18,900 bases of DNA from UHGV virus genome UHGV-1695514, one strand, 5' to 3'. The stretch is from a virus. Below, one piece after another: positions 4,564 through 14,210 of this stretch. The notes beneath the pieces are model-generated. The model made no database searches. It saw only the letters and a program-made list of their open reading frames with translations, and had not been told where the DNA came from. The position numbers and the translations under genes were made by a program. Position 1 is the stretch's first letter, and each line of letters begins with the position of its first letter.

Positions 4564-5352
4564 ATGGCACCTTCACTAATCGCGGATTACAAAAAGGTAC
4601 TCTCAGATTTCCCAGATCATGATAAACGCGAAAAAATCCGAGTCGGCTATACGGTTGGCTCGGATTTTTCTGTTTTGCGCCTTACTGAGTGGGCGTTGAC
4701 GGGGTCAAGTTACCCATATTGCCTCACTGTATCTGTGGTAGGGGCGCCAGATAATGAGTGGTTGCAAGAAATTGCAATAGAAATGGATGCCTCTGATAAT
4801 GATGAAGAGGAAATCATTGGCTACATACGTGCTTTAGTCGGTGCTGAACCTGAAGATGATGATGGCATCCAGATCGCTAGATTTGTATACAGAGATTTTC
4901 TGTTTCGGTCACAACAAGGTCACCACAGCGGAGTGCAGATTAAAGGTGCTTTTGTTGATCCTTCCAAGGAAAAGAAAGGCCTTGCCCGCTTAGTATATGG
5001 CTTCCTCCTTAACTGGCACGAGCATATCATCAGCGATGACCATCAGACGGTTTATGGGGCTAAGATATGGGCCGTTGGGATGTTAAAAGTAGGTAGAGTG
5101 CAAGTCTACGATAACATAAAAAGTGATTTTGTAGATGTGCTTACTGAAGGCGGTATCGGTATAAATGGATTCAAGCCTTGGGATGCTATGATGCTCAAAG
5201 AAGCACAGCTAAAGCACTGGAACCCTATGGCGATTAGTATAGACCCATCATCGCAGATTCTAGCCATCATTTCAGCGTCTGACAGGCATCAGTATAATGG
5301 TGTTACTGTTTTTAACAGAGTCGTTAGACGAAGGCTCAGAGTAACGAGATAA
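4564..5352 (+). CDS. hypothetical protein (262 aa), second gene of the low-GC island
   Basis: ATG immediately follows the upstream stop (probably co-translated). Acidic stretch (DASDNDEEEI, EPEDDDG). No recognisable catalytic motif. Followed by an intrinsic terminator. Confidence 0.7.
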   Translation: MAPSLIADYKKVLSDFPDHDKREKIRVGYTVGSDFSVLRLTEWALTGSSYPYCLTVSVVGAPDNEWLQEIAIEMDASDNDEEEIIGYIRALVGAEPEDDDGIQIARFVYRDFLFRSQQGHHSGVQIKGAFVDPSKEKKGLARLVYGFLLNWHEHIISDDHQTVYGAKIWAVGMLKVGRVQVYDNIKSDFVDVLTEGGIGINGFKPWDAMMLKEAQLKHWNPMAISIDPSSQILAIISASDRHQYNGVTVFNRVVRRRLRVTR

Positions 5353-5373
5353 ACCCGCTGCGGCGGGTTTTTT
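5353..5373 (+). terminator. rho-independent terminator
   Basis: CCCGC-TGCG-GCGGG hairpin (5354-5367) followed by TTTTTT (5368-5373), directly after the stop at 5350-5352. Confidence 0.8.
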
Positions 5374-5456
5374 GTTGCCATCCTTTAATTAACTCCAAAG
5401 TACCTACCATTTCACCTTTACACCGCAGCCGTAGGCATTTAGGCTATATCGCATAT

Positions 5457-5474
5457 AAGAAAACAAGTTGTTTC
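5457..5474. promoter_or_regulatory. palindromic operator-like element AGAAAACAAGTTGTTTC upstream of parA
   Basis: AAACAA-G-TTGTTT palindrome at 5461-5473, ending 35 bp before the parA start. A near-identical element (AGAAAACAACTTGTTT) precedes the helicase gene. Confidence 0.45.
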
Positions 5475-5508
5475 ATACGACGATAAATCACACGTAGGGA
5501 TATCACGA

Positions 5509-6174
5509 ATGACCCAGATCATTGTGGTGGGCGGCACCAAGGGTGGCCCAGGCAAATCGACTGTTGCTCAGCAAATTGCAGCCTGTCTGAAAATCAAAAA
5601 GAAAAAGAAAGTCCAGATCACTGATATCGACATCCAGCGCACCACGACAGGGTGGTGTGAAGACCGCCGGCACAATGAAGAACTGGAGCTGATCCCGTTC
5701 GCCTATGTCCAGGATGACATCATCAAACACATCACTTCGCTTCGCGGCCGTTTCGATTACGTCGTCGTTGACGCTGGTGGTTTCGACTCCGAAATTCAGC
5801 GCCAGGCTATGCTGATGGCCAACGTGATCCTTATCCCGCTTCGCCCGAAACGTCGCGATCTGAAATCCTTGCGTGACATCGACCCCATCGTCGACAGCGT
5901 TAGCAGCGTGAATGACCAAATCAAAATCCGTGCTGTAATGAACCAGTGCCCGTCTCTGCCTTCCCAGGCTGCGCGCATTATCGCTGCAAAAGAAATTGTC
6001 GAAACCTTTGGCATCGAGGCGGTACCGGTGAATCTTTACAACCGCAACGTCTATGACGATGCCGAAGAGGCGGGCCGTTCCATCTTTGAGATGACCGGAG
6101 CCGAACGCGACAAAAAGGCTGAGGCCGAGATTGAAGCATTAGTAGAATACGTAATGACCTTGGAGGGTGAATAA
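5509..6174 (+). CDS. parA: ParA-family partition ATPase, small type Ib (ParF-like, no N-terminal HTH)
   Basis: Deviant Walker A GGTKGGPGKST near the N-terminus, Walker B-like FDYVVVDAGG, overall ParF-like layout, 221 aa. RBS TAGGGA 8 nt upstream. Stop overlaps the start of the next gene. Confidence 0.8.
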   Translation: MTQIIVVGGTKGGPGKSTVAQQIAACLKIKKKKKVQITDIDIQRTTTGWCEDRRHNEELELIPFAYVQDDIIKHITSLRGRFDYVVVDAGGFDSEIQRQAMLMANVILIPLRPKRRDLKSLRDIDPIVDSVSSVNDQIKIRAVMNQCPSLPSQAARIIAAKEIVETFGIEAVPVNLYNRNVYDDAEEAGRSIFEMTGAERDKKAEAEIEALVEYVMTLEGE

Positions 6175-6536
6175 TGTCCATGAAAATGGGTGATCTGGCA
6201 AAACGTCCGGCTGCGGAAGCTGCTGCGCCTAAAAGCAGCACCCCGATGCGCCAGCCTGTCCGTCCACAAGGCCGTCCAACACGTGGCAAAGAGAAAATCA
6301 AAAGCCGCACGATGTCTCTTGAAGACGAGTATTTCGAATTACTGGAGATGATGAAGTTCATCCCTCGCTTCGAGAAGTTCACCCGTTCTGATGTGATACG
6401 TGCAGCCATTTTCCATCTGGCAGAGAAGTCCCCGCAGGAAATAGAGGACATCGTAAAGATGAACGAGGCGATCACCGCAGCCGATGTGACGATGCGTACC
6501 GATGAAATCAAGCGTGAGCTGATGAAGAAAGGTTAA
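6174..6536 (+). CDS. small basic partition/centromere-binding partner (ParG-like, putative ribbon-helix-helix)
   Basis: ATG overlaps the parA stop (TAATG). Basic Pro/Arg-rich N-terminal tail, then an RHH-like segment (KSRTMSLEDEYFELLEMMKF...SDVIRAAIFHL). Position matches the second gene of type Ib par operons. Confidence 0.55.
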   Translation: MSMKMGDLAKRPAAEAAAPKSSTPMRQPVRPQGRPTRGKEKIKSRTMSLEDEYFELLEMMKFIPRFEKFTRSDVIRAAIFHLAEKSPQEIEDIVKMNEAITAADVTMRTDEIKRELMKKG

Positions 6537-6581
6537 ATAAGAGGCGTCGAAAGATGCCTTTAACTCAAAAGGACTTTGTTT

Positions 6582-7340
6582 GTGCTGTACAAATACGTAG
6601 GGCATGAAGACCCAAACGAATTAATCAAAATTCTTAAATTCTTCATCGAAGATGGAACCATCCGAGCCACCCGGCCACACGACTTCAATGATCCTGCCGA
6701 GTTCAAAGCCAAATTTAGTTTTGACGCCACGATCCAAGAGAAGCTTGTCCGATATCATGAGATGTGGCCTGGCAAAAGCGACGATGACGGTGAGAACTGG
6801 TTAAGAGGGCGAACCAAAAACGCCGAAGAGTTTGACGCCTATATGCTGCGCGGAAATCTGCTTTTGGATACTGGTGTGATATGCCTCACCAGAACTGACA
6901 CTAATTACCTGATGTGGTCGCATTACGCCAGCTCCCACTCTGGATTTTGCATAGGGTTTGATGACGCTATTGTGGAAGCGCTGGATGACCGACACACAGC
7001 GTTAAACGGTGACGTGGAGTACGTGAAATCGCCGCCTGAAGTGAACTTCTATACCGCTGATGTGTACGACATTGTCAGAGCCATCTTTCTGCACAAGGGT
7101 GAGAGCTGGAAGTACGAAGAAGAGTTCCGGATTATCTCTGAGCTGCCAGGGCTTAAGAAGTTGGACACCTCGCTCATCAAAGAGATTTCTATCGGATGCA
7201 AACCCTATCCAGAGCTGGAAAGTTTTGCCCGTGAACTGCTGGACAGCAATCTGGCCGTGTACAAAATGCTTTGCCCTACCGACTCGTACCAACTGAAGCG
7301 TGTGGAGCTGGACAAGAACCTTTCTTTTCAAGGTTACTAG
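6582..7340 (+). CDS. DUF2971-like protein of unknown function
   Basis: N-terminal LYKY motif, FNDP-AEF, and a central MWSHYA...GFCIGFD block resemble my recollection of the DUF2971 family. Start is ambiguous: GTG 6582 (AAGGA 9 nt upstream) or TTG 6576. Lower GC than flanking genes. Confidence 0.5.
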   Translation: MLYKYVGHEDPNELIKILKFFIEDGTIRATRPHDFNDPAEFKAKFSFDATIQEKLVRYHEMWPGKSDDDGENWLRGRTKNAEEFDAYMLRGNLLLDTGVICLTRTDTNYLMWSHYASSHSGFCIGFDDAIVEALDDRHTALNGDVEYVKSPPEVNFYTADVYDIVRAIFLHKGESWKYEEEFRIISELPGLKKLDTSLIKEISIGCKPYPELESFARELLDSNLAVYKMLCPTDSYQLKRVELDKNLSFQGY

Positions 7341-7361
7341 TTCTGGCAGCTTCAATTAAGA

Positions 7362-7427
7362 ACCTGCTTCTGTATATATAAATACTAAGTTACTTATTAT
7401 TATTTATACGGAAGCAGGTCTTTTTCT
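7362..7427 (+). terminator. 9-bp perfect stem enclosing a 40-nt AT-rich loop, followed by CTTTTTCT; terminator-like or regulatory hairpin
   Basis: ACCTGCTTC (7362-7370) pairs with GAAGCAGGT (7411-7419). The loop contains the palindrome TAAGTTACTTA (7386-7396). Confidence 0.4.
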
Positions 7428-7501
7428 ATGCCAACTTCCCAGACACATTCCCTTCCGTTTCCACTTCCAAAAAACATCTCCAGTCGCTATGATCTGTCAA
7501 A

Positions 7502-7519
7502 TAGTAAGTAAGTAGTTAC
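7502..7519. promoter_or_regulatory. TAGTAAGTAAGTAGTTAC motif; candidate operator/promoter element
   Basis: GTAAGTAAGTAGTTAC at 7504-7519, 15 bp upstream of the ATG at 7534. Its exact reverse complement occurs at 14320-14335 upstream of phoH. Confidence 0.45.
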
Positions 7520-7533
7520 CTATCGGTGAGGGC

Positions 7534-8259
7534 ATGAGCCAGATCTTTTTTGACACCATAAACAACGGCCAGTACGACTTCATGACAGAGTGGGACACGG
7601 TCGCCATGGACAAGTGGGTTGCGGAAAACATCGGTCTTTCACGATGCCAGGGGGAGGCTGAGCTCTTTGATACAAAGTGGTTTGACTATCGCGACATGCA
7701 CCCGCTGATGGCAACCTGTCTGTTCACCGAAGCCTATAAGCGCGCATACTCACAGATCATGCTGTCTCATGGCCGCGAGCATTTCGAGACGGCGCCATTC
7801 AGCACTGGTCTGAAACGCCTGCCTTACCAAGAGCTTTCGGCGGTGAACAAAACCTCTCTCTGGAAAGCTCGCCAGTTTGCAGATCGGTATTGCTGTTCTT
7901 ATGACTATTTTATATCAACTGTTCTCTCTGCAGCTGCACGCCGGCTCTGGGACAAATTACCTCGCCCTCAGCATCTTTGGCAGCCAGAACTGATTGAGAT
8001 CTTCGAAAGCAAACTCGCCAGTCGTGCGGGAACGCGTCTGGATGACTCTGTAGTGAGTTTTAAGCACTTAGGAGACATGCAGCATGACCCAATTCAGGAA
8101 CGTTACTTTGAATGGGTTCTGGAGCGTTTGAAGCACATCACCCGTGATAAGCGTATCCGCACCATCTTCTCTGCTGTCTGGTTGATGGAGCTGGTGCCTG
8201 AGCGCGTTATCTATGCCCATTACCCGGAAGAACTGGAAGAAGCACGGCGACTGTGTTGA
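7534..8259 (+). CDS. hypothetical protein (241 aa)
   Basis: Long ORF with uniform coding-like composition; no recognisable motif. Confidence 0.65.
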   Translation: MSQIFFDTINNGQYDFMTEWDTVAMDKWVAENIGLSRCQGEAELFDTKWFDYRDMHPLMATCLFTEAYKRAYSQIMLSHGREHFETAPFSTGLKRLPYQELSAVNKTSLWKARQFADRYCCSYDYFISTVLSAAARRLWDKLPRPQHLWQPELIEIFESKLASRAGTRLDDSVVSFKHLGDMQHDPIQERYFEWVLERLKHITRDKRIRTIFSAVWLMELVPERVIYAHYPEELEEARRLC

Positions 8260-8282
8260 TTGCCTGTTCCATATTTTTACGA

Positions 8283-8300
8283 TTAGAAAACAACTTGTTT
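8283..8300. promoter_or_regulatory. palindromic operator-like element AGAAAACAACTTGTTT upstream of the helicase gene
   Basis: AAACAA-C-TTGTTT palindrome at 8288-8300, 23 bp before the ATG at 8324. Matches the element upstream of parA at 17 of 18 positions. Confidence 0.45.
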
Positions 8301-8323
8301 AAGCACCAAAGGATATCAAACAC

Positions 8324-9664
8324 ATGACCGAACTTTGCCACACGGGACGAGGGTTGTCTGAAGAGTTCGACGACGACTTCCAGAATCGTCTGGCGGCGTA
8401 TTTTTGCCGCGATCATGAGTTTCTGACTCGTGCCGGCGATCTGGTTGCCCCCAACCAATTCTCCAATGCGGCGAACGCCATACTGGTGAACATGGTATCG
8501 GGCTATTTCAGAATGTATAAGAGCGCGCCGTCATCGGCGGCCATCCTCGATATGTTGAAGCGTGCTAAACGCGATAAGACGATCAGAGAAGAGATGTTCC
8601 CGGATGTTGTGGCGGCGTTTAAGCGGGTGCTCTCGGAAAAACTCTCTGATACGGCTTACATGGTCGACCAGGTCGCGACGTTCGCTAAAAGTGTAGCGTT
8701 CGACGATGCGTTGATTAAAGCGGCCGAGATGAAGGAGAAGGGCGACTTCCAGGGAGCGATGGCCATCATGGCCAAAGTGCAGCAGATCGGTTCTAACGAA
8801 GCGACGGGCATTTATGACTATTACGCCTCTGCAGCGGAACGTTACAAGGCCCGTGAATATGAAGCCTCTGATGATTACGTGCCGAACAGCATCACCACCG
8901 GTCTTCCGCTGCTGGATCGCATGCTTTATCAAAAAGGTTGGGCGAAACGTGAGATGGTGCTCTTCATGGGGTTTGCGAAATCAGGTAAATCGACAGCGAT
9001 GGGGGAGTTCTCCATTAACGCAACGCTGGCCGGCTACAACGTTTTGTATCTTTCTCTCGAAGTGCATACCTCGATTCTCTCCGATCGCTTCGATGCACGG
9101 CTGTCTGAAACGGAGATGTCAAAGCTGGTAGAGCAGCGTGACGACGTTCACCGGAAACTCGCGGAGCTTGGCGCGACGAAAGGGGTGGGGAATCTCTGGG
9201 TGGTTGAGCGCCCGTCAGGAAGCATGTCGCCTGCAGATTTGGATCGTATGCTCAATAGCATGAAAGCGAATGGCATGATCCCGGATATGGTGGTGGTCGA
9301 CTATGCGGACTTGATGCGTGCCAGTTACGACCTCCGTGACGACCGGGCGAACATCCGTTCTATCTACACCGATCTGCGTGCTCTCTACGATAAGCACAAC
9401 GTTGCAGGAATCACGGCATCCCAGACCAACCGTGAAGGTGGCTCATCCGAAGTGGCCACCATGATGCACGCCGCAGACAATATCGAAAAAGTCCGTATCG
9501 CCGACTTAGTCATCACTATCAACAAGACTGAGGAGGAAGAAGCCAAAGGTGAAGCACGACTCTATTTTGCTGGTTCCCGTAACCAGAAGGGCGGGGTGAG
9601 TATTCGCGTTAAGCAGAATCTCGAACAGATGCGCTTCATCGAGCGGATCATGGAAGTTCTTTAA
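8324..9664 (+). CDS. DnaB-like replicative DNA helicase (RecA-fold ATPase)
   Basis: Walker A GFAKSGKST, Walker B-like MVVVDYADLM, helicase-like C-terminal region (ITASQTNREG); 446 aa; adjacent to a primase gene. Confidence 0.75.
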   Translation: MTELCHTGRGLSEEFDDDFQNRLAAYFCRDHEFLTRAGDLVAPNQFSNAANAILVNMVSGYFRMYKSAPSSAAILDMLKRAKRDKTIREEMFPDVVAAFKRVLSEKLSDTAYMVDQVATFAKSVAFDDALIKAAEMKEKGDFQGAMAIMAKVQQIGSNEATGIYDYYASAAERYKAREYEASDDYVPNSITTGLPLLDRMLYQKGWAKREMVLFMGFAKSGKSTAMGEFSINATLAGYNVLYLSLEVHTSILSDRFDARLSETEMSKLVEQRDDVHRKLAELGATKGVGNLWVVERPSGSMSPADLDRMLNSMKANGMIPDMVVVDYADLMRASYDLRDDRANIRSIYTDLRALYDKHNVAGITASQTNREGGSSEVATMMHAADNIEKVRIADLVITINKTEEEEAKGEARLYFAGSRNQKGGVSIRVKQNLEQMRFIERIMEVL

Positions 9665-9671
9665 AAAAATA

Positions 9672-9712
9672 GGCGTGGGGCAAAGACGGATAACAGCCCC
9701 ACGCCCTTAAAA
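9672..9712. terminator. 9-bp GC-rich hairpin flanked by A-run upstream and weak T-tract downstream; possible bidirectional terminator
   Basis: GGCGTGGGG (9672-9680) pairs with CCCCACGCC (9697-9705), loop 16 nt. The downstream U-tract on the + strand is weak (CTTAAAAATT); on the - strand it is followed by a T-run. Confidence 0.4.
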
Positions 9713-9746: not shown

Positions 9747-9815
9747 ATGAGCCTTTATGGTATTCAAAAAACGCGGCTTATCAAGATATTGCCGTTTAAA
9801 AACTGCGGTAAATGA
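9747..9815 (+). CDS. possible 22-codon upstream ORF translationally coupled to the primase gene
   Basis: AAGGA (9735-9739) 7 nt before ATG 9747; encodes MSLYGIQKTRLIKILPFKNCGK. Its TGA (9813-9815) overlaps the primase ATG (9812-9814), which itself has no obvious RBS. Confidence 0.25.
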   Translation: MSLYGIQKTRLIKILPFKNCGK

Positions 9816-10933
9816 CAATGAGTGACCTCAAAGAGTTACTGTCCGAGCTGGATTTCGAACAATGGCTGGATATGGAAGGCATCATCTATCGTCGCGGCGG
9901 TGTAAGCGCCCGCGGCCGCGAAGTGAATATCAAAGAATGTCCGGTATGTGGAAGCACAAACTGGAAGGTCTATTTCAACCTGACCAACAACGTCGGGAAA
10001 TGCTTCGCCGGCGATCACCCAGAAGAAATTCAATTTAATAAGCTGGTTTTCCTCAAACACTACAGCGGTAAGTCTCGTCGTGCCTTTGAGGAGTACGTAC
10101 ATAACGCACTCCTGTCTCAAGGTTGGGCGCCAAAAAAAGAAGAGGTTGTGCTGGCCAGTGCTGTGGAACTTGAAGGCCCGGTGGCTTTACCGCGGCATTA
10201 TGAACTGCCAATTGACGGTCGGCTGCCGGACTATCTTGTTGAGCGGAACATTACCCCGGAGCTGGCCAAATATTTTGACCTGCGTTACTGCGTCGAGGGA
10301 AAACATGCTTATGTCGACCCATATACCGATCAGGTAAAAGGGCAGGCATTCGATATGCGCATCCTGATACCGATTTACGATCTGAATGGGGTGATGAAGA
10401 CATTCCAGGGGCGTGACGTCACCGGCGCAGCAGAACGTCGATATCTCTTTCCAATGCAGCTGCCGGCATCCGGGAGGTTTCTCTACAATGGACATAACGC
10501 AGTTGGTAAGCAAACAGTCGTCGTCTGTGAGGGGGCTTTCGATGTCATGGGGGTTAAGCGCGCCATATTCGACGAGGAAACACTCCGGGACTACGTAGAG
10601 CCCATTGGCACGTTCGGGATGCATCTGTCCGGAAACACGACTGTAGACGCAGAAGACCAGCTGGGCGCGTTTCTGTCGTTAAAGGCTGATGGTCTGCGAA
10701 ACGTCATCATGATGTGGGATAGCGAGAAGCAAGCGATCCGAAACACAATGGCGGCCGCCAGACGATTAGCCAGTATAGGGTTAAATGTGAAAATAGCCTG
10801 TCTTGGAGAAGAAGGGCTAGATCCCGGGGAGGCCACCCAGGAACAAATTCTCAAAGCCTACTATCGTGCAAAACCCTACTCTAAGCAACTGGAGCTGCAG
10901 AGCAAGGTTCTCGGTATTAGTGCATTTAATTAG
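9812..10933 (+). CDS. DNA primase (zinc-ribbon plus TOPRIM, DnaG/T7 gp4-primase-like)
   Basis: Zinc-binding-type CPVCGS...(14)...C-x4-H near the N-terminus; TOPRIM signature VVCEGAFDVMG (E-G-x-x-D) and a downstream acidic MWDSE motif; located next to the helicase gene. Confidence 0.7.
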   Translation: MTMSDLKELLSELDFEQWLDMEGIIYRRGGVSARGREVNIKECPVCGSTNWKVYFNLTNNVGKCFAGDHPEEIQFNKLVFLKHYSGKSRRAFEEYVHNALLSQGWAPKKEEVVLASAVELEGPVALPRHYELPIDGRLPDYLVERNITPELAKYFDLRYCVEGKHAYVDPYTDQVKGQAFDMRILIPIYDLNGVMKTFQGRDVTGAAERRYLFPMQLPASGRFLYNGHNAVGKQTVVVCEGAFDVMGVKRAIFDEETLRDYVEPIGTFGMHLSGNTTVDAEDQLGAFLSLKADGLRNVIMMWDSEKQAIRNTMAAARRLASIGLNVKIACLGEEGLDPGEATQEQILKAYYRAKPYSKQLELQSKVLGISAFN

Positions 10934-11053
10934 TTCGACTCATGGCTGTAGTTCCATATCCGTGTCGGAAATACCATAATTTTTTTATGGATGTAGGTAT
11001 CTACTTAAATATTTTAATGTAATAAATAACACTTTGGTTATGGAGGACATCAC

Positions 11054-11842
11054 ATGAAAAAAGGTATCGAACAGGCAGTTTTAGAGATGATCAAGAAGTC
11101 AGGCGTAGAGCTTGGCGAGGGAGAACTGGAGAGCATCATCGATGCCTCATTCAACACGGCATCAGAGCACATATCGAATGCGCTATCCTGCATTCCTCTC
11201 AAAGAAGGGGCGACACATACGTCGGTGTTAGTGTGGTACGCAAAGACGCCTGAAATGCCCGGTACTGTTCAAAAGCGTGTAGCTCTGGTTGCGTTCATCG
11301 TCCCGTCGTTTGAGACCGGCATTGGGCCAGTCGCGCGTTTTGGCGCCTGGTATGACGACAAAATCATCTTCTCAAACTGCTACCAGATGGAAAGCAGGGA
11401 AATGCTTGAGAATAGCGTTAACGTGACTCTAAGAGCCGTAGAAAGCAAATGCGAGACAGTAGGAGAGGCTTTCGTCAGCGTCATGACTTCTCCCGATGTT
11501 GAAAGGCGCCATGTAGATCTGGTAGCACCACCAGGCTTGTTGGAAATGATTGTCTCTGGAGATTACAACAAGGCTATAGCGCGTGTTCGTGAGCTGGACT
11601 ATGGGCGTATCTGCGACTTGTGTCGTAGTGATCTGGATTTAATCAATGTGATCGTTGAGGCTGGCCGCGTCTGTGATGGGGTGTTGGCACAATACGCAAG
11701 TAAGATCAGTCGTTTGGCCAATGAAATGCCTATGCTGATTCAGGAAGCCAAATCCCACGCCGTTCATGCCGCAAACGACCTGCTAACCCCTTATCGATAC
11801 GAAGCCGCAAGTGACAAGATGACCGGCTGGGCCACCTGGTAA
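11054..11842 (+). CDS. hypothetical protein (262 aa)
   Basis: GGAGGA (11042-11047) 6 nt before ATG 11054; coding-like composition; no recognisable motif. Upstream AT-rich region contains a GTAGGTATCTACTTAAAT motif. Confidence 0.7.
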   Translation: MKKGIEQAVLEMIKKSGVELGEGELESIIDASFNTASEHISNALSCIPLKEGATHTSVLVWYAKTPEMPGTVQKRVALVAFIVPSFETGIGPVARFGAWYDDKIIFSNCYQMESREMLENSVNVTLRAVESKCETVGEAFVSVMTSPDVERRHVDLVAPPGLLEMIVSGDYNKAIARVRELDYGRICDLCRSDLDLINVIVEAGRVCDGVLAQYASKISRLANEMPMLIQEAKSHAVHAANDLLTPYRYEAASDKMTGWATW

Positions 11843-11887
11843 GCCGTGACTATGTACTGTGTCCCCGTACAGAGTTATTTAAACTGA

Positions 11888-11904
11888 TTAGTAAGTAAGT
11901 ACAA
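11888..11904. promoter_or_regulatory. TAGTAAGTAAGTACAAG motif; candidate operator/promoter element
   Basis: Direct GTAA repeats (GTAAGTAAGTA at 11890-11900), 21 bp upstream of the ATG at 11922; same family as the 7502 and 14320 motifs. Confidence 0.4.
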
Positions 11905-11921
11905 GATTATCATTTAGAGAA

Positions 11922-12389
11922 ATGGCTACCAAAACTGACTTATCAAAAATCCCTTCGATCTCTGGACTCAACGGCTACTCGCTGCGTTGCCCGGAAGTGA
12001 AGCTTAACGGACATGACTCGTACTGCAGCTACACCGTCTGTCAGCACACGATCCTTGCCTTCAAAGAGAAGCGACTGCCGGCGTCATCGTTCACCTCCTG
12101 TGCGAACGCCATTTCGGCCGGAAAATGCCAGGCGCTGGAAATGATGGTGGAGGAAATCCGGCAAGGTGAGTCGCTGTATTTCGTCGATATGCCGGCGCTC
12201 ATTGAAGAGGTGGAGGAAAGAAACCGAACAGCGAGAACCCTGCAGCCGAAGAGAGGCAGTGCATCTATCTACAGTGGAATTAAAGGGAAGCGCCAATCTT
12301 CGACCGTTGCTGAAACTGGCAGACTGCCCGATGCCAGCGAGATTTATTCAGAACTTATCAAAGAAACCTTAAAGGAGAAGACCGACTAA
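11922..12389 (+). CDS. hypothetical Cys-containing protein (155 aa)
   Basis: First gene of a run of four genes with overlapping start/stop codons; five Cys in the N-terminal half (possible metal site); no recognisable family. Confidence 0.6.
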   Translation: MATKTDLSKIPSISGLNGYSLRCPEVKLNGHDSYCSYTVCQHTILAFKEKRLPASSFTSCANAISAGKCQALEMMVEEIRQGESLYFVDMPALIEEVEERNRTARTLQPKRGSASIYSGIKGKRQSSTVAETGRLPDASEIYSELIKETLKEKTD

Positions 12390-12637
12390 TGGAGAAGCTG
12401 ATCGCGCTTAAACATAAGCTGGACGCCATTAAAGCAATGGGAACGAACGCCAAGAAAGAGGCGCTGGCCAGTATGAATGACTTCGAACAAAGAATGGTGT
12501 CACTCATGCTGAACCCATTTGTTCGTTTCGGGGTGAAGAAATACAAAGTGGCCGATCCACTTAGCAAGTCCGTACCCAGTGATCAGAAGGCGATAGAGCT
12601 GCTGGAGCAACTGATTGAAGCAGGAGAATACTCATGA
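12389..12637 (+). CDS. hypothetical protein (82 aa)
   Basis: ATG overlaps the upstream stop (TAATG); helical, charged composition. Confidence 0.55.
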   Translation: MEKLIALKHKLDAIKAMGTNAKKEALASMNDFEQRMVSLMLNPFVRFGVKKYKVADPLSKSVPSDQKAIELLEQLIEAGEYS

Positions 12638-12786
12638 TTCCATACATCATATTGACTTTTTCTGGAGGCGTCGCCCTTGGCTTCATCATCTGTCATGACT
12701 TGATCAAGCAGGAACTGAAGACCAAAACACTACGTATCGGTAAGCGGGTATATCGCGTCGTTCACGAGACAGGGGTATCAAAATGA
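12634..12786 (+). CDS. possible small membrane protein (50 aa), below the ORF-track length cut-off
   Basis: ATG 12634 overlaps the stop of the upstream gene (ATGA). Encodes MIPYIILTFSGGVALGFIICHDL... with one N-terminal TM helix. Its stop (12784-12786) overlaps the ATG of the next gene (12783). Confidence 0.35.
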   Translation: MIPYIILTFSGGVALGFIICHDLIKQELKTKTLRIGKRVYRVVHETGVSK

Positions 12787-13082
12787 GCAATCTAACCTCG
12801 TTTGACTGGTGGATAGGCTTGTACTTTGTGGCTTCTGGTGTCGCAGTAGCTTTTACGATTGGCCAGTCCCTGGTAAAGCTACTGCTTTTAAGATTCGCCA
12901 ATCGCAAGCGTATCGATGACACGCTTTGGTGCCTTGGATCTCTACTTGAACAGCGTTACGGCGAGCTGAAGGAAGGTGCAACCCTTTGCATAAAGGCAAA
13001 ACGTTTCACGGCCACAATCCAACGGACGCAGGATGAGAAGCCAGTACTGATCAAAAAAGGAGCAAGCGAACGCATGAAATAA
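12783..13082 (+). CDS. hypothetical small membrane protein (99 aa)
   Basis: N-terminal hydrophobic helix (WWIGLYFVASGVAVAFTIGQSLV), then a basic tail; last gene of the overlapping run. Confidence 0.55.
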   Translation: MSNLTSFDWWIGLYFVASGVAVAFTIGQSLVKLLLLRFANRKRIDDTLWCLGSLLEQRYGELKEGATLCIKAKRFTATIQRTQDEKPVLIKKGASERMK

Positions 13083-13108
13083 TAGGTAAGTGTTTACTTA
13101 TTAAGTTG
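13083..13108. promoter_or_regulatory. GGTAAGTGTTTACTTATTAAG motif (TAAGT-N4-ACTTA inverted half-sites)
   Basis: Same half-sites as the 2387 and 7386 palindromes; lies at the start of the long non-coding tRNA region. Confidence 0.35.
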
Positions 13109-13472
13109 ATATAAATATGATTGACTTGTTTTCGTTGAGACGCGACTGTTTGAACGTTTAAAGATAACTGCAAACGACAATCAGTATCTGGCAGTAGCCT
13201 AAAAAGCCAAACACCAGCGAGGTCAGTTTCCAGCCTCGTCACCGAAATGGGACACACTAAGCGAGTGTGATTGCAAAACGCAGGTAGGGCATCTGGTTAA
13301 CCAGTGCCCTTACCGATGAGGTAACAGAATGGGCGGTTGGGTTTTATGTCCAACACATCCCGGCTCCCAAAGGCCCGACCGTCTATCCTGTTACGTCATT
13401 TCTGTTACTTATGTCGTTTAGTTTTGGGTTAAAAATGGCGACGTAACCCGGCTGGTTAGGTGAGCCAGCACG

Positions 13473-13809: not shown

Positions 13810-13884
13810 GATGGTGTAGCTCAGTGGTAGAGCGGTTGACTGTTAATCAGCTGGTCGGTGGTTCGAATCCCCCCACCATCGCCA
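13810..13884 (+). tRNA. tRNA-Asn (anticodon GTT)
   Basis: Manual cloverleaf: 7-bp acceptor GATGGTG/CACCATC, U8-A9, D-arm GCTC-AGTGGTA-GAGC, anticodon arm GTTGA-CTGTTAA-TCAGC (anticodon at 13842-13844), T-loop TTCGAAT, discriminator G and encoded CCA (13882-13884). One U-C mismatch in the T-stem. Confidence 0.7.
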
Positions 13885-13973
13885 CAACGGTAAGGGTATT
13901 TGGACGACAGCAAGGAAGGCGCGCTCTTTGGCTGTTCGCGACGGATCTGATTCCCTGAATGCCCTTACCGTTG
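13883..13973. repeat. 14-bp perfect inverted repeat enclosing a 63-nt loop, starting at the 3' end of tRNA-Asn
   Basis: ACCAACGGTAAGGG-type arm at 13883-13896 pairs with 13960-13973 (CCCTTACCGTTGTG); the loop contains further short complementary segments. Confidence 0.65.
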
Positions 13974-14041
13974 TGATGAATTGCAGCTCGTTGAAGCAAC
14001 CAGAAGATAAGCATCTGGCGTCACAACGAACGGAGGATAGA

Positions 14042-14128
14042 GGGCATGGCGCCCAAGCGGTCTTGAAAACCGTCCCATTGCGAAAGCGATGATGGTTCGA
14101 TTCCATTATCCTCCGCCAACACAGCGTT
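14042..14128 (+). tRNA. tRNA-Ser (anticodon TGA), class II with long variable arm
   Basis: 7-bp acceptor GGAGGAT/ATCCTCC, anticodon arm GCGGT-CTTGAAA-ACCGT (anticodon at 14074-14076), variable arm with GAAA loop, T-loop TTCGATT, discriminator G and encoded CCA (14126-14128); 87 nt. The D-arm is atypical in my hand fold. Confidence 0.65.
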
Positions 14129-14129
14129 G

Positions 14130-14210
14130 AGCGGTTTGGTTTTGTTTTTCTTATCGAAAAGACTCCGCCTGTCACCATGGCCAGACCGCTCAACGCTGTG
14201 ATAGACATTA
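14130..14210. repeat. 16-bp perfect inverted repeat enclosing a 49-nt loop, starting 2 nt after tRNA-Ser
   Basis: CACAGCGTTGAGCGGT (14130-14145) pairs with ACCGCTCAACGCTGTG (14195-14210). Confidence 0.7.

Follow-up and report, generated by a model that had tools for sequence, protein, structure and literature searches.

A dispersed palindrome as the probable operator of a genome-wide regulon in SSU5-like phage-plasmids

The 18,900-nucleotide (nt) stretch of viral DNA analysed here (UHGV virus genome UHGV-1695514; the window) carries two near-identical palindromes, which we call motif A, one upstream of a partition operon and the other upstream of a helicase gene. The partition operon begins with parA (5509..6174, + strand), encoding a small Walker-type partition ATPase of 221 amino acids (aa) that is matched by the Pfam families AAA_31, MipZ, CbiA and VirC1 and by the PHROG 'ParA-like partition protein'; the Pfam matches cover the entire protein and there is no N-terminal helix-turn-helix (HTH) domain, as in the small ParA proteins of type Ib systems. 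The start of the next gene, encoding 120 aa (6174..6536, +), overlaps the parA stop codon; its product, labelled ParG-like in an earlier sequence-only reading, belongs to no known family and is the candidate binder considered below. A DUF2971 gene and a 241-aa open reading frame (ORF) follow, then a DnaB-like helicase of 446 aa (8324..9664, +; Pfam DnaB_C), which is the first gene 3' of the second palindrome, and a DnaG-type primase of 373 aa (9812..10933, +; weak matches to Pfam DNAG_N and Toprim_2, with a primase annotation in relatives). Upstream of parA lie lysis genes and an intrinsic terminator (5351..5370, +) that closes the upstream operon, implying that parA needs a promoter of its own.

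Copy 1 of motif A (AGAAAACAAGTTGTTT; 5458..5473, +) has a 13-base-pair (bp) palindromic core at 5461-5473 and ends 35 nt before the parA start codon at 5509. Copy 2 (AGAAAACAACTTGTTT; 8285..8300, +) has its core at 8288-8300 and ends 23 nt before the helicase start codon at 8324. Both cores are perfect palindromes, the sole difference between them being the central base, which is G in one and C in the other. The sequence-only reading had drawn attention to this pair, and its positions, 13-bp cores and distances of 23 and 35 nt are all confirmed; the identity of 17 in 18 positions that it gave was a slight overcount, since the named motif is identical in the two copies at 15 of its 16 positions, and the figure becomes 16 of 18 when two extra 5' bases are included. 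With at most one mismatch allowed, AAACAASTTGTTT occurs exactly twice in the window, against an expectation of 0.05 from shuffled sequences, none of 200 of which reached two copies; the two-copy observation is non-random.

On sequence comparison, the window is an SSU5-like phage-plasmid. Positions 5200-9700 are 97% identical to Klebsiella phage pJN2-26 and 86% identical to Salmonella phage SSU5, with weaker matches to the E. coli phage-plasmids Cyrano and PhiR41_1, and the local gene order is the same in the annotated relatives. Both palindromes keep their positions in pJN2-26, SSU5 (where the helicase copy has one mismatch), Cyrano, PhiR41_1, elements from Kluyvera, Buttiauxella and Cronobacter, and a divergent Klebsiella lineage. 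Around these conserved sites the flanking DNA diverges, and the central base is found as all four bases among relatives. When the region upstream of parA is aligned from six lineages, whose ParA proteins are 63-83% identical, only three blocks are common to all: a -35-like hexamer (TTTACA, TTGTCA or TTGTTT), an invariant TTAGGCTA located 17 nt further on, and ATAAGAAAACA..TTGTTT. Upstream of the helicase, TAGAAAACAA-N-TTGTTTAA is retained while its surroundings change, the centre being C, A or T among relatives. The sites persist at ~70% protein identity despite this turnover of neighbouring bases. A separate observation concerns the segment containing the parA promoter and operator (~5403-5478), in which the window, pJN2-26, SSU5, Cyrano and PhiR41_1 show few scattered differences, and only a single one within ~5426-5475, the adjacent coding DNA being just 79-86% identical; conservation of 5403-5478 seems to exceed what a promoter and an operator need.

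Both palindromes overlap predicted core promoters, which were assigned from sequence and conservation. The putative parA promoter (5417..5445, +) has a -35 hexamer TTTACA (5417-5422), a 17-nt spacer and a -10 hexamer TAGGCT (5440-5445), with transcription predicted to start at ~5452-5453, and the spacing of its hexamers is the same in all six lineages. For the helicase, the predicted promoter (8256..8283, +) comprises TTGATT (8256-8261), which overlaps the stop codon of the preceding ORF, a 16-nt spacer and TACGAT (8278-8283); this layout, TTGAT(T/C) or TTGAGC followed after ~16 nt by TAnnAT or CATAAT, recurs in SSU5, Cyrano and the loci L014, L015 and L017. A sigma70 consensus scan of positions 5200-8500 reported neither promoter, because each has a weak -10 hexamer, that of parA matching the consensus at three of six positions. 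With these assignments, copy 1 would occupy about +6 to +21 of the parA transcription unit (the core about +9 to +21), and copy 2 would span the helicase start site, which would fall inside its left arm.

The sequence-only reading had proposed a search of the rest of the genome for further copies. When complete relatives were scanned, each was found to contain 26-28 sites with up to two mismatches. The genome of pJN2-26, assembled from three fetched pieces, has 11 perfect cores, 17 sites with at most one mismatch and 26 with at most two; the corresponding numbers are 9, 18 and 27 for Cyrano, and 15, 21 and 28 for the more distant Klebsiella plasmid pfekpn2511-2, whose helicase is 69% identical. 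A first-order Markov model predicts 0.016-0.026 cores per genome, and AAACAA-N1-TTGTTT heads the ranking in each of the three genomes in an unbiased tally of every 6+6 palindrome with a gap of 0-4. The perfect copies in pJN2-26 precede terB-like, DUF4942-methylase, HD-domain, cobT-like, terminase-small, parA and helicase genes and a run of small ORFs, and nrdB is preceded by copies with one mismatch. Ten of these 11 perfect copies are intergenic, the remaining one lying within the last codons of a 58-aa ORF, and across the complete relatives nearly all sites are intergenic and promoter-proximal, in the manner of the dispersed operators of phage P1 C1. No copy of motif A was found near the plasmid initiator gene, RepA/RepB, in any complete genome scanned. 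Among IMG/VR loci with the 16-base motif, 79 of 120 are SSU5-like; three or more copies occur only in SSU5-like loci, and one unrelated locus has two. In the pJN2-26 record, one copy stands in a largely non-coding stretch (25.5-27.0 kb; L005), where it is followed by GATAAGAAAACAACAAAACAAGATAACG; the same fragment is also present inside a 262-kb IncFIB/HI1B Klebsiella plasmid (L019:5063), and the stretch may represent an origin region or encode a regulatory RNA.

A logo of 146 non-redundant sites shows positions -6 to -1 and +1 to +6 to be near-invariant, with a free centre (A in 48, C in 29, G in 31 and T in 38) and with asymmetric flanks, AGA on one side and A on the other. Roughly two-thirds of the sites face a gene whose start codon, preceded by a ribosome-binding site, is 12-40 nt away, and about one-third are flipped, 43-65 nt upstream and over the -35 region. 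The end of a -10-like hexamer favours distances of 20 or 27 nt from the dyad centre, and a TGn-extended -10 is found upstream of 33 of the 146 sites compared with 2 on the control side. Where sites are paired, their centres are separated by exactly 51 bp (four cases, bracketing a GATAAT -10) or 25 bp (three cases).

We conclude that motif A is probably the DNA operator of a genome-wide, repressor-controlled regulon. Strict conservation of both arms around a free centre, the existence of copies that are not transcribed, and the fixed spacing of paired sites all argue for a dimeric protein acting on duplex DNA. In the mechanism that we propose, a dimeric or dimer-of-dimers repressor would bind 5'-(A)TAAGAAAACAA-N-TTGTTTA-3' on double-stranded DNA and block RNA polymerase, both at the two promoters of the window and at ~20-28 other sigma70-type promoters, many of them with a TGn-extended -10. 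Together these operators would form one regulon, consisting mostly of early or lytic genes that are kept low in the plasmid-prophage state. The protein encoded immediately after parA would be the most likely binder, autoregulating its own operon and holding the other promoters down, with the consequence that the level of a partition protein would be coupled to the silencing of lytic genes. That the two palindromes are a shared operator, as had been suggested from the sequence alone, is supported: the dyad is strictly conserved, its centre is free, it overlaps predicted core promoters, and both sites are altered together in one lineage. A search of 8 million papers found neither the motif strings nor a description of SSU5 regulation or of how these elements control lysogeny.

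What is the state of these promoters in a lysogen? Normalised reads for each Cyrano gene are available from a lysogen of this relative of the window's element in E. coli LF82, with a median of 9.8 (PMC9928086, table S1). Genes behind motif A have 5-13 reads: terS 7.1, the cobT-like gene 7.8, CYRAN_58 5.7, nrdB 12.9, the tciA-like gene 7.0, CYRAN_87 7.1, CYRAN_101 7.5, CYRAN_108 5.7 and CYRAN_110 6.7 (PMC9928086). The exceptions are the parA operon (parA 50, the ParG-like gene 89, the next gene 55) and the helicase, with 21 reads against 6 for the preceding gene; RepA has 133 (PMC9928086). Most genes behind motif A are thus silent in the Cyrano lysogen, as are the genes behind the dispersed operators of P1 C1. 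Extended -10 promoters should be active by default, and from their silence we infer repression as the mode of action. The low helicase signal, together with a neighbourhood of primase, ligase, PolIII alpha and recombination genes, suggests lytic rather than plasmid replication, and the helicase-primase genes are probably lytic replication genes. Expression of parA at 5-9 times background despite a perfect operator weighs against simple, uniform repression of all sites.

Which protein binds motif A? The ParG-like protein is the best single candidate, with, in our estimate from comparative evidence, a little less than an even chance of being the binder. Its N-terminus is basic and disordered and includes PQGRPTRGK, which we take to be AT-hook-like; IKSRTMSLEDE comes next, then helices; a monomer model (predicted local distance difference test score, pLDDT, 69.5) shows the N-terminus disordered and IKSRTMS unstructured, followed by helices, and is compatible with a beta-alpha-alpha arrangement. 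Type Ib systems normally autoregulate at a position upstream of the par genes, and motif A is the only non-promoter block in the conserved region upstream of parA, which favours the ParG-like protein as its binder. No array of centromere-like repeats, of the kind expected for a type Ib system, was found in 5300-7600 or elsewhere in the window, where a single dyad lies upstream of parA; the absence of an array near the par genes likewise favours motif A as the target. Expression of the gene in the Cyrano lysogen (89 reads) also counts in its favour. Both parA and the ParG-like gene are kept in 15 of 15 loci that span the interval from endolysin to helicase (or to the ORF just before helicase). 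No natural SSU5 element that has the motif and lacks par was found; ST13-OXA48phi12.3 simply ends before the par region.

Comparison of lineages provides further contrasts. PQGRPTRGK and SRTMS are invariant in the aligned lineages that carry motif A, and lineage L155, with PQGRPSRGK and the same SRTMS strand, has a perfect parA site. The Raoultella lineage L154 (covered as 20 kb, with a best PLSDB match of 60%) is nested in the clade, its ParA and helicase being 75% and 69% identical to those of the window. Here the corresponding segments of the ParG-like protein read PQGKPRRGK and SRSLS, and canonical motif A has been lost at both promoters: the parA site has become AAACAATTTATTA and the helicase site is gone. 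A new 12-mer, TAAAATAATAAA, is common to both upstream regions of L154 and is found nowhere else in the 20 kb. In the Pectobacterium plasmid Drgb1 the basic arm is altered and motif A is missing altogether. As a separate observation, the Drgb1 locus (L018:11234-11455) is syntenic, has neither of the two palindrome families described here, and carries a frameshifted parA and an Hfq homologue directly before the helicase; in the motif-bearing genomes an FljA-like protein whose C-terminus is weakly Hfq-like is encoded at another location.

Several points weigh against this assignment. The label 'ParG-like', with its suggestion of a ribbon-helix-helix (RHH) fold, was not confirmed by any sequence or fold comparison: Pfam gave no match even at E=10, neither PDB sequences nor Foldseek gave any, and hhalign against a ParG sequence returned a probability of 0.1. 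In Drgb1 the strand segment is nearly unchanged (KSRTVS) despite the lack of motif A, and in L155 the helicase site is degenerate although the beta-strand is canonical and the basic arm differs by a single substitution. The covariation amounts to two contrasts, L154 and Drgb1, and other, unseen regulators may differ in these same elements. The type Ib centromere-binding proteins known so far recognise short repeats in arrays, and the one distant non-SSU5 homologue found (L152) has GCTT(A/G)C arrays around its par genes and no palindrome. No inactivation route after SOS induction, as a silencer of lytic genes would need, is evident. For the operator reading as a whole, the promoters and start sites on which the placement depends are themselves predictions. 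The L152 locus, a JGI metagenome contig (1780-2060, 3001-3170), is of interest in its own right: its small par protein homologue is 34% identical, its context is GC-rich and not SSU5-like, and its GCTT(A/G)C boxes, both upstream and downstream with a ~9-bp periodicity, look like a classical type Ib operator and centromere.

A second, likewise genome-wide palindrome family is present in these elements. The HTH 'putative repressor' encoded next to the integrase (CYRAN_45 / pJN226_0108) has its own upstream palindrome, GGTAAGTNCTTACC, which we call motif B; it reads GGTAAGT(A/G)CTTACC and sits 34 nt before the repressor start. No motif A was found in the divergent region of this gene, unlike the arrangement in which a repressor of the P1 C1 kind is flanked by its operators, and with a different palindrome in its upstream region the HTH protein is disfavoured as the binder of motif A. 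We infer that it is paired instead with motif B, because motif B lies before its gene and changes with lineage. That change is symmetric: AGGTAA-N4-TTACCT in pJN2-26 and Cyrano, AAGTAA-N4-TTACTT in pfekpn2511-2 and TAAGT-N4-ACTTA in L154. There are at least 12 copies of motif B in pJN2-26. The window contains three copies (ATAGGTAAGTACTTACCTAT, core GGTAAGNNCTTACC): 2386-2399, before a holin-like ORF; 7507-7520, 14 nt ahead of the 241-aa ORF that precedes the helicase; and 13085-13098, after the ORF at 12783-13082. Motif B resembles the SlmA site, GTGAGTACTCAC.

The remaining regulators were examined with a phyletic filter, by which lysogen-expressed proteins lost from at least one genome with motif A were removed. 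CYRAN_43, 98, 99, 102 and 109 and KacAT were dropped since they are absent from motif-bearing pJN2-26, CYRAN_46, 81 and 117 since they are absent from motif-bearing pfekpn2511-2, and CYRAN_37 since its homologue is deleted in the window. An FljA-like protein (Pfam Flag1_repress, 1e-80, with a weak Hfq-like C-terminus) is present in all motif-bearing genomes and absent from Drgb1, and is just 34% identical between genomes in which motif A is identical. CYRAN_123 is silent in the lysogen, and so are two proteins of relatives that have a ParB/Srx domain (PMC9928086 data).

Could the same genome-wide operator be bound by another repressor of the element, with the ParG-like protein binding elsewhere or non-specifically? 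Such a protein might be the FljA-like regulator acting on DNA, a DNA-binding protein of 88 aa whose gene precedes terS, or a protein that lacks annotation. All of the operator evidence would fit equally well, temperate phages usually have dedicated repressors, and the ParG-like protein has no demonstrable DNA-binding fold; moreover the FljA-like protein, CYRAN_62 and CYRAN_111 occur in every complete motif-bearing genome examined and not in Drgb1, as does CYRAN_37 apart from its deletion in the window. Against these points, the HTH protein has motif B and not motif A beside its own gene, the CYRAN proteins removed by the filter are missing from pJN2-26, pfekpn2511-2 or the window, the FljA-like protein diverges to 34% identity while the motif does not, and CYRAN_123 and the ParB-like proteins are silent in the lysogen. 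Taken together, this makes another repressor possible, if rather unlikely. The FljA-like protein raises a further alternative, that motif A is an RNA operator, located in the 5' untranslated region immediately ahead of the ribosome-binding site and read by this protein. FljA of Salmonella prevents fliC mRNA from being translated, the majority of sites are placed after the predicted start and ahead of the ribosome-binding site, their AGA...A flanks in fixed orientation to the gene, and the distribution of the Flag1_repress protein, with its weak Hfq-like match, follows that of the motif. However, not every site is in a leader as an FljA-type mechanism would have it: about one-third are flipped over the -35 region and would not be transcribed from the promoter that they flank, and the predicted helicase start falls inside the left arm. 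The exact dyad, with no compensatory changes and no stable hairpin, fits a DNA-binding dimer, motif A was not found in the E. coli fliC leader, and mRNAs carrying motif A are at background in lysogens. An RNA hairpin was in any case rejected, the helicase-site RNA folding at -0.7 kcal/mol, no better than shuffled sequences, and the parA fold leaving the palindrome unused; Rfam gave no match at either palindrome. We therefore regard an RNA operator as improbable.

A host factor is slightly less probable still. Recognition by a nucleoid-associated or regulatory protein of the Enterobacteriaceae would account for an identical motif in elements from Salmonella, Escherichia, Klebsiella, Kluyvera, Buttiauxella and Cronobacter and for its absence from the Pectobacterium element. 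We know of no enterobacterial regulator with this consensus, however; Raoultella is also an enterobacterium, yet hosts L154, in which both sites have changed, and outside SSU5-like contigs there are almost only single copies at chance level, the one unrelated locus with two excepted. Very improbable, too, is a duplicated promoter cassette that is kept by descent, or as a promoter or initial-transcribed element, with no dedicated binder, for which the mobile promoter-stem-loop units of T4-like phages offer a comparison. Many copies do share flanks beyond the dyad (GATAAT-aacaccaaca-AGAAAACAA), and Drgb1 retains ATAAGAAAA-type promoter cassettes with no palindrome. Yet the parA and helicase flanks are unrelated to the common cassette while the dyad in them is still exact, conservation is as strict in the right arm and at the C/G pair as in the left arm, around a free centre, and the sites outlast neighbouring turnover at ~70% protein identity. 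Finally, the 18.9-kb window has just these two copies, which would agree with a private operator that serves only the partition operon and the helicase-primase genes and so couples partition with replication of the plasmid. This specific coupling is the part of the sequence-only reading that fails, and we consider it extremely unlikely. Complete relatives have ~26-28 sites per genome before many unrelated genes, including nrdB, methylase, terB-like, cobT-like and terminase-small genes and small ORFs; the plasmid initiator RepA/RepB is encoded elsewhere and has no copy; and the helicase-primase genes are near background in the lysogen and lie among ligase, PolIII alpha and recombination genes. 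Nor are the two genes inseparable, for a Cronobacter-type SSU5-like variant (L147, Logan SRR31164113 contig, 10437-13303) has neither helicase nor primase, yet retains parA with its operator and the ParG-like gene.

A repressor acting at dispersed DNA operators, our preferred reading of motif A, has parallels in other systems, although none matches it in every respect. KorB of the IncP plasmid RK2 recognises OB, a 13-bp palindrome with a degenerate centre (TTTAGCSGCTAAA) that is dispersed in about a dozen copies and occurs once at the partition operon, and is both a partition protein and a global repressor. KorB is, however, a large HTH protein of the ParB family (type Ia) that often acts upstream of the -35 region or at a distance, whereas motif A sites lie between the start and about +20 or over the -35, the regulon consists of phage lytic genes, and the 120-aa candidate has no ParB domain. 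The type Ib RHH proteins omega (pSM19035) and ParG (TP228) are likewise small proteins encoded directly after a small Walker ParA, with self-repression expected, and omega also controls copy-number and toxin-antitoxin promoters. Their targets are arrays of 7-10 heptads or 8-12 tetramer boxes, in contrast to the one isolated dyad per promoter seen here, and they are RHH proteins, a fold that the comparisons did not confirm for the 120-aa protein. CopG (pMV158) and Arc/Mnt (P22) show that RHH proteins can act on a short dyad operator (13 bp for CopG) that overlaps the promoter and binds two dimers, but they are single-promoter regulators, neither partition proteins nor associated with a genome-wide family of sites.

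Two plasmid prophages complete the comparison. P1 uses one repressor, C1, at many dispersed lytic operators, including one before ban, which encodes a DnaB analogue; its operators are asymmetric 17-mers without sequence similarity to motif A, and C1 is a dedicated immunity repressor under antirepressor control. In the phage-plasmid N15, single palindromic sites for a partition protein are scattered rather than gathered in one array, and these sites affect late genes. SopB of N15 is, in contrast, a type Ia HTH ParB, with four sites compared with ~25 here, and these are not systematically on core promoters. The four are the dispersed inverted-repeat centromere sites IR1-4 (PMC7205306). Motif A resembles in kind the dispersed operator sets of P1, RK2 and pSM19035 and the scattered SopB sites of N15.

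Other features of the window lie outside the proposed regulatory circuit. Directly 3' of the DUF2971 gene is an AT-rich inverted repeat (7362-7419) with 20-nt arms that are 90% complementary and spaced by 18 nt, followed by a run of TTCC/CTTCC repeats (~7430-7470); the inverted repeat might act as a terminator or a binding region, or be an origin-like element. At 12389-12637 an ATP-dependent ligase gene is cut to its first 75 codons, ~1.5 kb of pJN2-26 being deleted in the window, with loss of the remainder of the ligase and two small genes, one a homologue of a 'putative transcriptional regulator'. Genes for tRNA-Asn(GTT) and tRNA-Ser(TGA) lie at 13810-13884 and 14032-14118, and the opposite-strand ORF 13843-14208, which overlaps both, is probably not a gene. 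A protein with a YafO-type toxin domain (Pfam, 3.5e-24) and a colicin E1/microcin immunity-like membrane protein, encoded at 16528-16938 and 17002-17361, are likely accessory cargo. From ~17.5 kb on the match to pJN2-26 ends, and a group II intron RNA domain is found at 17721-17946, within the region ~17.4-18.9 kb (Rfam RF02005, 186.6 bits); together these suggest an intron insertion near the integrase/immunity region.

What would such a circuit mean for these elements? A stronger proposal, which we hold to be doubtful though worth stating, is that the 120-aa protein is at once the centromere-binding partner of ParA and a global silencer, the ~25 palindromes serving as centromere sites and promoter operators at the same time. 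If so, assembly of the partition complex and repression of early and lytic promoters would be a single event, in a family carried on ~800 sequenced enterobacterial plasmids. The small par protein is encoded on 797 plasmids in PLSDB, and clinical Klebsiella, E. coli, Salmonella and Enterobacter commonly carry SSU5-like phage-plasmids. Whatever its binder, an operator of ~17 bp on ~25 promoters gives a direct handle on the control circuit of these elements and predicts its regulon, and the coexistence of motif A with a lineage-variable palindrome beside the HTH repressor gene suggests an architecture with two regulators. Should the partition protein prove to be the binder of motif A, the theme represented by KorB, omega and N15 would extend to a type Ib-like system controlling the lytic genes of a phage.

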